Below are positions 26,275 through 27,949 of a DNA stretch of 64,000 nt, one piece after another. The notes beneath the pieces were generated by a model, which worked only from the letters and a program-made list of their open reading frames with translations, was not told the DNA's origin and made no database searches. This DNA is from Escherichia phage UE-M6: sequence record PP301343.1; one strand, given 5' to 3'. Numbering within the stretch: the stretch's first letter is position 1; each line of letters opens with the position of its first letter. A program made the position numbers and the translations under genes.

Positions 26275-26348
26275 TGTCCACTACTGGATTTGAACCAGTG
26301 ACTTTCCGATTATTAGTCGGTTGCTTTCCCCGTCTAAGCTAAGTGGAC
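26275..26348 (-). tRNA. tRNA (manual fold gives anticodon AAT, possibly Ile; isotype unverified)
   Basis: Perfect 7-bp acceptor stem GTCCACT/AGTGGAC, D-stem GCTT/AAGC, T-arm ACTGG-TTCAAAT-CCAGT, anticodon loop CTAATAA; 73 nt. Confidence 0.55.
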
Positions 26349-26357
26349 TTATTATGG

Positions 26358-26430
26358 TTACCCAGGCAGGATTCGAACCTGCGTCCTAGTTGGTTTACTA
26401 GTGGGGCTTTACCACTAAGCCTACTGGGTA
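26358..26430 (-). tRNA. tRNA-like gene with canonical acceptor and T-arm but non-canonical anticodon arm
   Basis: Perfect 7-bp acceptor TACCCAG/CTGGGTA and T-arm GCAGG-TTCGAAT-CCTGC; the only anticodon helix (CTAGT/ACTAG) encloses a 6- or 8-nt loop. Confidence 0.45.
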
Positions 26431-26730
26431 TTAATAGGGGAGTCATGCCAGGCTTTAACTGGCTCCTTCTTCGCAATCCTTACATACCCCTACATAATTA
26501 TTGCGTTAAGCTTTTTTGTTTAAGTTTAAGTGAAGGCGTTCTTGCTGACTCATAATAGAGTGGGCGTTTGACGAATGACTAGTTCGTTACTACCCGTTTG
26601 CCATAAGTACCTGGCGACTTTGGTTTGAGGTGGGAGTCCGAGTCCTGTACAGCCTTACCGTTCACACATTGGCAGCGTATCTAGAGTTGCACTTCCGGCA
26701 ACTGGATTTAACTGTTACACCTCAAATAGG

Positions 26731-26842
26731 CAGTGGGGGATGGAATCGAACCATCAGTATTAAGTCTTATTCGTGCACCAAGCACGCTAGTAGATTACTC
26801 TACCGGAGGGAATCGAACCCTATCTACTTCACCAGACCCACC
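26731..26842 (-). ncRNA. tRNA-like element(s) carrying two canonical T-arm motifs
   Basis: T-arms at 26739-26755 and 26806-26822 (TTCGATT loops); no standard-length cloverleaf could be closed by hand. Confidence 0.3.
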
Positions 26843-26930
26843 ATAATTCTTCCAATTTAGAGTAGCATTGTCACGGTGGGTGCTTTAAATGCCGGGAAAC
26901 ATTTAAATATACAATGCTACTTTGAATTGG

Positions 26931-27052
26931 TTATCAGTGAAGGATTCGAACCTCCGGTTGGAGTCTATAGCTTACCGCAGCAGCCCTCCAATCTAGCGGT
27001 GTCACACTTAGTCCAAACTTGAACATGTCAAGCCATCTCGTGCAACTGATAA
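26931..27052 (-). ncRNA. Long tRNA-like element (about 121 nt) with acceptor-like helix and T-arm
   Basis: 8-bp inverted repeat ttatcagt / actgataa in acceptor position relative to a canonical T-arm GGAGG-TTCGAAT-CCTTC; too long for a standard tRNA. Confidence 0.35.
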
Positions 27053-27056
27053 TTGG

Positions 27057-27119
27057 TTCCGGCGTCTGGACTCGAACCAGAACACTCATGCCGTGCACGA
27101 CACTAGTACCTACACCGGA
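27057..27119 (-). ncRNA. Short tRNA-like element (acceptor plus T-arm minihelix)
   Basis: T-arm TCTGG-TTCGAGT-CCAGA with a 7-bp acceptor-like pairing (one G-U) but only about 29 nt between. Confidence 0.3.
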
Positions 27120-27186
27120 ATTAATTGCCAGGGATTCCACCTGGCTCCATCTGTTTTTATAGTCACTCAGATATCGTCTGGACTGT

Positions 27187-27262
27187 AGGCATGGGTGGGA
27201 ATCGAACCCACAAACCATTCAGCACTGTAGCCTCACGCTCTACCTATTTGAGCTATCACATA
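27187..27262 (-). ncRNA. tRNA-like element with D-arm-like and T-arm motifs
   Basis: T-arm GTGGG-TTCGATT-CCCAC and a D-arm-like GCTC-AAATAGGTA-GAGC; acceptor and anticodon helices not resolved by hand. Confidence 0.3.
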
Positions 27263-27949
27263 CCATTGATTAACTCCCCGTTTCTAATACATGGACGGGG
27301 ACACTCCACGGTCGTTTGATAATCAGGACGACTCACTCCTGACTGACGCTTGGCTTATTAGGCTGCCATCAGAACAACATCATCGTTTGCATTTATGTTA
27401 TTGGTTCGTTTCTAAAAAACCGCATAATCGCTTACGAAAACTATCAAAGAGTACACTAGCTCTGGGCCACGCTTGTGGACATCGGCCTACCTTCCACAGC
27501 TAATCAACTAATGCACTCACTGATAGCCCATAATAGGGGGGAGGGGACGAATCCTCCCTTTATACCCTATATTGCATGTAAGATCTAACAGTTCGATGTT
27601 GTAGGTAGCTAGGCTATCCGACATTTAACCCAGCCCATATAGGGGCTTATGTGATTAGAATGCTCAACATTGAGCGGTTAGTTTGATAAGGGATCTGAAG
27701 CCTTATCCTAAAGATACTAACCTTTGGGATATAGCCTAAGATTCAGAAATGGCCCCTATAGGGAGAGGCCATTGATTAACCCGAATGTTGCTTTACATTT
27801 GCTGTGATAACCAATTCTTAAAATAGTCTGTCTGACGGATGGGGGTCCACCCCTAGCGTCAGTGCCATACGGCAAAGATTAAGTTAAGAAAGGTTATGAT
27901 AGGAGTTCCTATCTCAAAGGATTCTAACAGAACCCTTCACGATATTAAC

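Follow-up and report, generated by a model that had tools for sequence, protein, structure and literature searches.

The question raised by this locus is what a row of transfer RNA (tRNA)-type T-arms stands for when most of them belong to no recognisable tRNA. The window, i.e., the whole stretch of DNA that was analysed, comprised 64,000 nucleotides (nt) of Escherichia phage UE-M6 (PP301343.1). The region in question is 99.6% identical to Escherichia phage UE-S5b, and the phage is a Gamaleyavirus (Schitoviridae), a G7C/N4-like podophage of E. coli. A stretch of ~1.9 kb on the minus strand, without a credible gene, extends from the end of a small open reading frame (ORF) at 27945 to a strong intrinsic terminator (13-bp stem, then a U run) at 26031–25992, and the core of this non-coding stretch spans 26272–27264 (minus strand). 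The usual explanations of phage tRNA clusters are codon usage and, lately, escape from tRNA-cleaving defences. In this cluster, most of the tRNA-looking genes are unable to decode, yet they are clearly selected for structure. Four of its elements, designated E1, E2, E3 and E45, are, judging from comparison with relatives, conserved structured RNAs that are under selection for structure and lack anticodon loops.

T-arms were searched for with a strict pattern, a 5/5-bp stem around TTC[AG]ANN, and a script found six of them on the minus strand, at 27211, 27081, 26955, 26755, 26382 and 26299. The T-arm at 26822 makes a seventh, its stem being 4/5 bp, and all seven loops fit TTCRANT. The whole window contained nine strict T-arms, all on the minus strand, compared with 2.2 ± 1.4 on both strands together in 200 shuffles; six or seven of them within 913 bases are therefore far beyond chance. 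A sequence-only reading of this DNA had reported seven minus-strand TTCRANT T-arms with 5-bp flanking stems in ~1 kb without a credible ORF. The script and the shuffles bore this out, with the 5-bp stems holding for six of the T-arms and a 4-bp stem for the one at 26822. The longest ORF over the region (94 amino acids, 26934–27218, minus strand) was rejected as a gene, being unconserved: the open frames over E2 in relatives ranged from 11 to 94 amino acids. ARAGORN at default settings and Rfam at gathering scores called only two tRNAs, at 26272–26348 (E7) and 26355–26430 (E6). Two sites were thus called, not seven, and they were the two that alone had been closed by hand into near-standard cloverleaves.

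The five T-arms outside E6 and E7 belong to four elements, all on the minus strand. E1 (27187–27264), delimited by alignment, is a 78-nt near-cloverleaf with an acceptor stem, a D-arm and a T-arm, and no CCA is encoded. Its acceptor stem consists of 6 bp, a conserved bulged U and then 1 bp. The place of the anticodon arm is taken by a closed irregular helix, which comprises a G.U pair, a covarying pair, tandem GA and GGC/GCU under a variable cap loop of 5–6 nt. E2 (27054–27119), derived from a helix scan and four compensatory pairs, is a 63-nt mini tRNA-like RNA followed by an encoded CCA. Its acceptor stem measures 7 bp, and a T-arm and a discriminator A are present; a GG-containing linker replaces the D-arm, and a long hairpin with the tetraloop UGCA occupies the anticodon-arm position. 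E3 (26928–27051), derived from a helix scan and five compensatory pairs, is a 121-nt tRNA-like RNA with an encoded CCA, whose acceptor stem and T-arm enclose two further parts: a 45-nt extended arm stands where a D-arm would be, and the anticodon position is taken by a 6-bp stem under a 22-nt structured cap. E45 (26729–26843), delimited by covariation and a covariance model, forms one RNA of ~112 nt, whose ends pair in an acceptor-like stem with N-CC after it at the 3′ side. It holds four hairpins, namely T-arm A (26823–26805), hairpin 2, hairpin 3 with the conserved loop UUGGU, and T-arm B (26755–26739). The acceptor-like helices noticed earlier at spacings of ~62, 112 and 121 nt proved to be real and correspond to E2 (27119–27054), E45 (26843–26729) and E3 (27051–26928), respectively. 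Two T-arms for which no acceptor-like helix had been seen were real as T-arms, and their partners were found: one is T-arm A within E45, whose double T-arm explains why it had seemed acceptor-less, and the other lies in E1.

In all elements the acceptor stem is stacked on a T-arm with the T-loop consensus, and the helices covary in E1, E2, E3 and E45. E2, E3 and E6 end in A-CCA. Only 2 nt separate the ACCA of E2 from the acceptor stem of E3, as in polycistronic tRNA precursors, and a U stands at position −1 in all four atypical elements of this window.

The comparison covered 27 N4-like loci obtained via the polymerase gene and further loci obtained via BLAST. In E45, 14 of the 26 pairs were compensatory and 99.5% of the cells were paired, which was reached in none of 500 shuffles; slid controls gave at most 2. 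In E1, compensatory changes affected 9 of 21 pairs in an alignment of seven sequences (Gamaleyavirus, a Klebsiella N4-like phage, Jiaodavirus, jumbo phage RaK2, Erwinia Cronus and Yersinia TG1), and the cap loop differed in almost every one of the seven phages. Fewer pairs were compensatory in E3 (5/38), where the acceptor stem occurred as UAUCAGU/ACUGAUA, UACCAGU/ACUGGUA or UACUGGU/ACCAGUA and the arm as GGCUUGA/UCAAGUU or GGCCUGG/UCAGGUC, and in E2 (4/22). E2 was 100% identical in N4, though the compared segment of the virion RNA polymerase gene was 78% identical, and its folding z-score was −2.17. The parts that have no counterpart in tRNA, the extended arm of E3 and the UUGGU loop of E45 hairpin 3, were themselves conserved.

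The spread of E1 and E45 extends well beyond the N4-like phages. E1 was found in 83 phage records, including those of T4-like Klebsiella phages, RaK2-like jumbo phages, Yersinia TG1 and Erwinia Cronus, usually within tRNA clusters, and it was ~80–91% identical across T4-like, jumbo and N4-like phages. GenBank and other databases label its copies pseudo tRNA-Cys, -Thr or -Gln; these labels are artefacts because the cap loop of E1 varies. An IMG/VR scan with an exact 23-mer of E1 returned two loci, which indicated that this pattern was too strict. The covariance model of E45 (R1) recovered nine full-length members at 110–138 bits, including G7C, KP8, JZBo1 and the T4-like VR25. JZBo1 stood outside the training set of R1, and ordinary tRNAs scored at most 26 bits with it. 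In VR25, the copy of E45 stands between tRNA-Met and tRNA-Arg in a tRNA cluster. No close relatives of E1, E2, E3 or E45 were found in 5426 E. coli genomes, where module M1 of the same stretch (see below) was found alone (15 genomes). In N4, the counterpart of the stretch is a 1.5-kb gap between gp47 and gp48, in which the cluster is present and nothing is annotated. The content of the cluster was mosaic across the 27 N4-like loci, and the stretch as a whole is a chain of modules, many of which were found singly in unrelated enterobacterial phages, always unannotated. On this distribution, the elements are exchanged as modules among phages, and E1 and E45 are present in unrelated families as well. 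Klebsiella phage KP8 (L140, 9417–9491, minus strand) has a further tRNA body that ends in CCA, and its loop, ACAG, is of 4 nt.

Could these elements be tRNA genes in decay, as the sequence-only reading had offered? Functionless pseudogenes left over from a once larger cluster would suit the tRNA content of the locus, which varies among relatives, the degenerate copies that exist elsewhere, such as, in Klebsiella phage ZC2, a tRNA-Arg-like stretch that lacks the acceptor, and the 'pseudo' tRNA calls given to E1 by several databases. The compensatory substitutions in all helices contradict this and largely refute it: the helices of E1, E2, E3 and E45 were kept as their sequences changed, and E1 and E45 recur in unrelated families. 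E1 has also retained its high identity across families while its cap loop varied, E2 is identical to that of N4, and the non-tRNA parts (extended arms, UUGGU of hairpin 3) are conserved too. Decay of this kind is very improbable for the four elements. The stretch in ZC2 (L005, 1583–1641) resembles tRNA-Arg(UCU) and scored 39.4 bits with the Rfam tRNA model over model positions 8–63 only; it lies ~300 nt downstream of a transfer-messenger RNA (tmRNA)-like RNA of that phage. It may be a true decayed tRNA and would then form a useful contrast to E1–E45.

The mosaic distribution might also be expected of selfish, tRNA-derived modules, similar to short interspersed nuclear elements, that spread by recombination driven by homing endonucleases or homology and look conserved through recent acquisition. 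Modules do occur singly in unrelated families at 77–97% identity, and homing endonuclease genes lie in or beside such clusters (segB in T4, an HNH gene in Michonne). Mobility accounts for the spread, but not for the compensatory pattern, which amounts to selection for structure after divergence. Mobility and function are moreover compatible, and we give a purely selfish origin a small chance.

None of E1, E2, E3 and E45 conserved a 7-nt anticodon loop in the comparisons of relatives. The closed helices or structured inserts that stand at the anticodon position indicate that the four elements cannot read codons. Searched against the Rfam tRNA family RF00005, whose gathering threshold is 29 bits, they gave no tRNA match even at E ≤ 10; default ARAGORN made no call on them in the window, and permissive-E Rfam searches of the region and of the whole window assigned them to no family. 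Another proposal had been that they were tRNAs with insertions, i.e., functional decoding tRNAs whose introns or large inserts are removed after transcription. With its intron option and a relaxed threshold, ARAGORN does force E1, E3 and E45 into cloverleaves, among them tRNA-Thr(ggt) with a 45-nt intron for E3 and tRNA-Arg(ccg) with a 28-nt intron for E45. These models are poor and were rejected: they depend on mismatched stems and on the lowered threshold, nothing is reported at default settings, and the helices through which the supposed introns would cut are supported by covariation. The introns known from bacterial and phage tRNAs are self-splicing group I introns of at least 200 nt; no group I fold was found, and Rfam gave no intron match. 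With no conserved anticodon loop either, the proposal is unsupported and scarcely credible.

The two called tRNAs differ from each other in this respect. E7 (26272–26348, minus strand; ARAGORN, and Rfam tRNA at 65.6 bits) is a canonical tRNA-Ile with anticodon AAU, and it alone among the elements has a 5-bp anticodon stem with a 7-nt anticodon loop. An A at position 34 is unusual in bacteria and normally confined to tRNA-Arg(ACG); the sole canonical tRNA of the cluster carries one. E6 (26355–26430, minus strand) is a tRNA body with an encoded CCA, which ARAGORN reported as 'tRNA-??? (ac)' and Rfam scored at 42.8 bits. The loop on its anticodon stem, AAACCA, has 6 nt, or 8 nt should the U-A pair open, and the Rfam alignment treats the anticodon arm as an insertion. 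The folding z-score of E6 was −2.84.

If the look-alikes do not decode, how would they be produced and what might they do? The ~1.9-kb stretch can be read as one small-RNA operon, from a promoter-like site to the terminator, so that its modules would share a single transcript. A sigma-70-like promoter candidate, TTAATA-16-TAGAAT with TG (27921–27948, minus strand; consensus scan only), stands directly after the upstream ORF and is a possible start of this operon. RNase P and the 3′-end machinery recognise an acceptor stem of 7 bp stacked on a T-arm, together with U at −1 and a 3′ RCCA. By these marks, the elements would be expected to be excised in the way of tRNAs and to be stable. In the model that we propose, the host enzymes of tRNA maturation would excise the elements from the polycistronic transcript, RNase P at the 5′ end, with trimming and CCA repair at the 3′ end. 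The tRNA frame would serve as a natural 'tRNA scaffold' that provides each RNA with defined ends and stability. The matured RNAs would then act as non-decoding mimics that bind host or phage factors recognising the tRNA body or the acceptor end independently of the anticodon, either through their inserts (E3, E45) or as bare bodies (E1, E2, E6). We favour, with some reserve, this general reading of the look-alikes as non-decoding tRNA mimics or natural tRNA scaffolds released from an operon by host tRNA-processing enzymes. Possible roles include decoys for tRNA-directed toxins or defences and competitors in tRNA processing; of the specific ideas, the decoy role appeals most. Phage tRNAs are known to counter tRNA-directed systems (bioRxiv 10.1101/2023.03.15.532788), and the product of the next gene downstream has a Tad2-like anti-defence domain, which is context for the decoy idea; we put forward the decoy version of the model only tentatively.

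The same shapes could instead be purely cis-acting punctuation, which would recruit RNase P and 3′ processing to free the neighbouring RNAs, the excised pieces themselves being functionless. E1 begins 9 nt past the end of a tmRNA-like RNA, so that cleavage at the 5′ end of E1 would create the 3′ end of that RNA, and the same position is held elsewhere by a true tRNA (Michonne), by another tRNA-like element (Bas96) or by a stalk hairpin. For punctuation, four distinct conserved architectures with conserved inserts, such as the double T-arm and the 45-nt arm of E3, would be needless, and true tRNAs would do equally well. It also leaves unexplained why E1 and E45 stand alone in tRNA clusters of T4-like phages. 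We consider this account unlikely. The sequence-only reading had listed tRNA-like processing elements among its options, and its description as tRNA-like in kind holds; the elements look like stable structured RNAs in themselves, beyond mere processing signals.

Several points weigh against the model of matured, non-decoding mimics. Processing and stability are predictions from shape, and the decoy role is hypothetical. The acceptor stems vary freely, which means that no aminoacylation identity is conserved. In some related modules (N4, SP-076) the acceptor-like stem continues into a long stalk helix; RNase P would be hindered by such a stalk, which suggests that release as a tRNA-sized RNA does not apply to every module of this kind. 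Default ARAGORN calls the ECBP1 copy of E1 tRNA-Cys(aca), and E1 is therefore borderline for gene finders. The folding z-scores of E1 (−0.67), E3 (−0.17) and E45 (−1.28) are unremarkable, so the case rests on comparison, where the alignments are small (6–7 sequences) and partly of close kin, with few compensatory pairs for E2 and E3. E6 has no comparative support, as the copies found are all identical.

What is the RNA that precedes E1? The tmRNA-like RNA (27274–27445, minus strand) adjoins the part of the window singled out by the sequence-only reading but falls just outside it. It was delimited by a below-threshold Rfam match, 47 distinct relatives and covariation, and comprises a conserved 5′ motif, GAUAGUUUUCG..GCGAUUAUGCGG, a tag frame, a stop-codon helix and two H-type pseudoknots. 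The tag frame (27355–27390, minus strand; Rfam match and comparison) reads GCA AAC GAU GAU GUU GUU CUG AUG GCA GCC UAA UAA, i.e., ANDDVVLMAA and two stops; the tag of E. coli tmRNA is ANDENYALAA. The Rfam model tmRNA_permuted scored 32.7 bits in the window against a gathering threshold of 47, and 25–30 bits in six other phages. The match arises because of the tag frame encoding ANDDVVLMAA.

The 47 distinct relatives came from an IMG/VR scan and BLAST. Among them, 23 distinct 33-nt versions of the tag encode 12 peptides, each of 10 codons and a stop, with the pattern A-N-[DE]-[DEN]-x-x-[LM]-x-x-A. Variation was greatest at the third codon position and ANDDVVLMAA was written in six ways, a coding-like substitution pattern. 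An overlapping AUG-initiated frame (MQTMMLF) varied from 5 to 9 residues in length and was rejected as a conserved frame. In the stop-codon helix, the outer pair 97:120 varied (AU in 10, GC in 11), and both stems of both pseudoknots covaried. The conserved core stops at the second pseudoknot, and the flanks differ between phages. The RNA was detected in 314 phage records. Of 5426 complete E. coli genomes, 657 carry it, for the most part on P1-like plasmids. In P1 itself (NC_005856, ~68,884–69,065; L167 16885–17066) the tag is ANDDLMMVAA; this copy belongs to the C1-controlled ban operon, where it stands just after the 'dicF-like region' and before trnA, and none of the 535 features of the record represents it.

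No tRNA-like domain was found for the tmRNA-like RNA, which has no T-arm, acceptor stem or G3:U70 of its own, and ARAGORN made no tmRNA call. A permissive Rfam search of the whole window detected no other tmRNA fragment; it gave only weak matches in the same region, a 17-nt match on the E1 T-arm and a 15-bit alpha_tmRNA match over 27273–27452. Several ways of completing the molecule were considered and rejected. A permuted gene using the stalk module upstream fails on strand order, as the T-arm and acceptor strands there run as in a normal tRNA. Pairing between the strands that flank the coding RNA is possible in Skatevirus ZBSTP8 and impossible here and in ZC2. Obligatory pairing with orphan T-arms is not general, since only 14 of the 47 distinct loci have one within −800 to +1000 nt; the other 33, including P1 and most P1 relatives, have none.

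A split tmRNA would nevertheless give the look-alikes a ready function: one or more of them would supply the tRNA-like domain, and the pair would add ANDDVVLMAA to stalled proteins. A coding-like tag frame without its own tRNA-like domain directly upstream of E1 invites this idea, as do the alignment of the 3′ end of the Rfam tmRNA model to the E1 T-arm and the tRNAs or T-arms found near the module at 28 of 47 distinct loci. Charging with alanine needs a G3:U70 pair. It is absent from the acceptor stems of all nearby T-arm elements, and these stems vary freely. The 33 loci without an orphan T-arm speak against the split as well, E1 and E45 occur in T4-like phages without an adjoining tmRNA-like RNA, and no complementarity was found that would join the two pieces. 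We see only a slender chance for the split tmRNA, and take the tmRNA-like RNA to be an independent module of the same operon, not an obligate partner of the look-alikes.

A broader scenario is that the whole cluster forms a phage toolkit against host ribosome rescue and tRNA surveillance. The tag would truly be translated, via host tmRNA-SmpB or a phage tRNA mimic, and the anticodon-less bodies would be decoys for tRNA-directed immunity, SmpB or RNase P. This is quite unlikely; if true, it would mean a new split or parasitic form of trans-translation in P1, N4 relatives and ~12% of complete E. coli genomes. The tmRNA-like RNA is of wider interest in any case, being unannotated even in P1. In a census of 2014, mycobacteriophages and Bacillus phage G were the only phages with a listed tmRNA (PMC4131195), and a 2025 database paper counts 79 bacteriophage sequences (PMC11915505). 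The literature found on tmRNA-like or tRNA-like RNAs in N4, Gamaleyavirus and enterobacterial phages contained method mentions only. As far as we found, the tag-coding half of a tmRNA without the tRNA half seems not to have been described before.

The remaining modules of the stretch all lie on the minus strand. Upstream of the tmRNA-like RNA, the 'stalk' module X-up (27441–27526), read from the sequence, has the order CUAUC AGUG AGUGCAUUA, a 50-nt interior, and UAGUGUACU CUUU GAUAG. A long closing helix thus surrounds a variable interior, which is ~90% identical in Vi1-like phages. The same architecture occurs elsewhere with mutually compensating stems (AAGAGCAUU/AGUGCUCUU, AAGCUGCUU/GGCAGCUUU and AAGGGCGCUG/CAGCGUCCUU). 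The recurrent stalk is a two-part helix of ~15 bp, typically CACAAC-AGGU-AAGAGCAUU ... AGUGCUCUU-UCC-GUUGUG, around a variable 40–70-nt interior that sometimes holds a T-arm module. Copies were observed in L004 (1143–1215 and 1380–1460), L005 (ZC2; 1375–1480) and L009 (1370–1440). The stems covary between phages, and stalks flank the tmRNA-like RNA on one or both sides; the module may serve as a stalk for processing or mark the boundary of a cassette. The longest matches to phiEco32-like phages stop at its 3′ end, ~27436. Farther upstream, a hairpin GGGAGG-AUUCGUCC-CCUCCC with its flanks (27539–27590) was 77–88% identical in phiEco32-like phages of ~77 kb. N4 (NC_008720, ~32940–33045) and Salmonella phage SP-076 (L008, 1117–1222) have a T-arm module that lacks a D-arm and is set within a stalk helix. 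In SP-076 it lies directly upstream of the tmRNA-like RNA and has the T-loop UUCAACU, which is presumably the same as the T-loop of E. coli tmRNA.

Module M1 (27120–27185) contains the hairpin GCCAGG-UGGAAUC-CCUGGC and stands before E2 in this phage as well as in N4. M1 is common to phiEco32-like phages, Salmonella 9NA, Shigella DS8, Klebsiella phages, N4 and 15 E. coli chromosomes. Just upstream of E45, a long stalk hairpin with an inner hairpin, AAGUAGCAUUGU...ACAAUGCUACU (26861–26922), was read from the sequence. It holds CACCCACC, complementary to the 5′ acceptor strand of E45 (GGUGGG), and an alternative pairing with E45 is possible. A sigma-70-like site lies at 26874–26846, from which transcription would begin almost exactly at the 5′ end of E45. 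Downstream of E45, a long hairpin module of ~100 nt (26624–26726), also read from the sequence, has the closing stem UUUGAGGUG/CACCUCAAA. The N4 version (NC_008720, ~33220–33325) has GUGGGAUG/CAUCCCAC, fully compensated, with a conserved interior, and the module is also found in Enterobacter phages; it is probably another structured RNA. As for the neighbouring genes, the first sizeable one downstream of the RNA cluster (24825–25352, minus strand) encodes the Tad2-like (Thoeris anti-defence 2) domain, with E = 3e-24. The gene at 25444–25836, which precedes the Tad2-like gene, belongs to the N4 gp49/Sf6 gp66 family, and the giant virion RNA polymerase gene occupies 14417–24787 on the plus strand.

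Taken together, E1, E2, E3 and the double-T-arm E45 are four undescribed and unannotated RNA families, accompanied by one crippled tRNA (E6). Gene finders label such elements variously tRNA-Cys, -Thr, -Gln, -Val, 'OTHER' or nothing, and phage tRNA counts are distorted by this.

Among known systems, canonical tRNA shares with the elements the 7-bp acceptor stem, the TTCRANT T-arm, the discriminator and CCA (in E2, E3 and E6), the D-arm (in E1 and E6) and the back-to-back order. The differences are that no 7-nt anticodon loop is present, that E2 has no D-arm, that E3 carries a 45-nt arm instead, and that E45 has two T-arms. The RNA at 27445–27274 resembles tmRNA (SsrA; RF00023, RF01849 and RF04321) in its 10-codon tag of the ANDxxxxxAA type starting from GCA, in the double stops within a helix loop and in the downstream H-type pseudoknots. 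It differs in that only the coding half is present, that it stays below the Rfam threshold and that ARAGORN is silent on it. Phages can carry half a tmRNA: mycobacteriophage DS6A has an RNA consisting of the tRNA-like domain only (PMC4131195). DS6A thus keeps the opposite half from the RNA described here.

Other RNAs that exploit the tRNA shape were compared as well. YrlA (RF02553) is a non-coding RNA with a T-arm-containing module that mimics tRNA, as here; its model reached 17.3 bits against a gathering threshold of 69, with the match on E6/E7, and no Ro/Rsr gene was found among the neighbouring genes. GOLLD and ROOL are large structured RNAs found next to tRNA clusters of phages, and neither had an Rfam match in the region or the window. 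The eukaryotic mascRNA (~60 nt) and engineered tRNA scaffolds with a foreign insert are stable, non-decoding RNAs that mature through RNase P, RNase Z and the CCA enzyme. They may serve by analogy as a working model for E2, E3 and E45, being from other domains of life or artificial, with no homology to them.

The closest known analogue in build is RNAC of T4. The T4 tRNA cluster ends with the genes of RNAC ('species 1' RNA, 139 nt), a small stable RNA, and of RNAD. As read from the T4 sequence, RNAC ends in a canonical T-arm, CCGGG-UUCGAAU-CCCGG, and directly after it a 7-nt strand that can pair with the 5′ end, with ~100 nt of other structure between its ends, which is the same build as E3. 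The function of RNAC is still unknown (PMC3014915, PMC9697503). A search for homology to RNAC and RNAD with blastn-short found the T-loop only, and the E45 model R1 matched neither. The resemblance is therefore architectural, and the elements are RNAC-like in build, with membership of one family unsupported. T4 differs further in that its RNAD has no T-arm and that it has neither a double-T-arm element nor a mini element like E2. E1, E2, E3 and E45 sit in easily handled E. coli phages, and they offer a way into the 50-year-old question of T4 RNAC-type RNAs.

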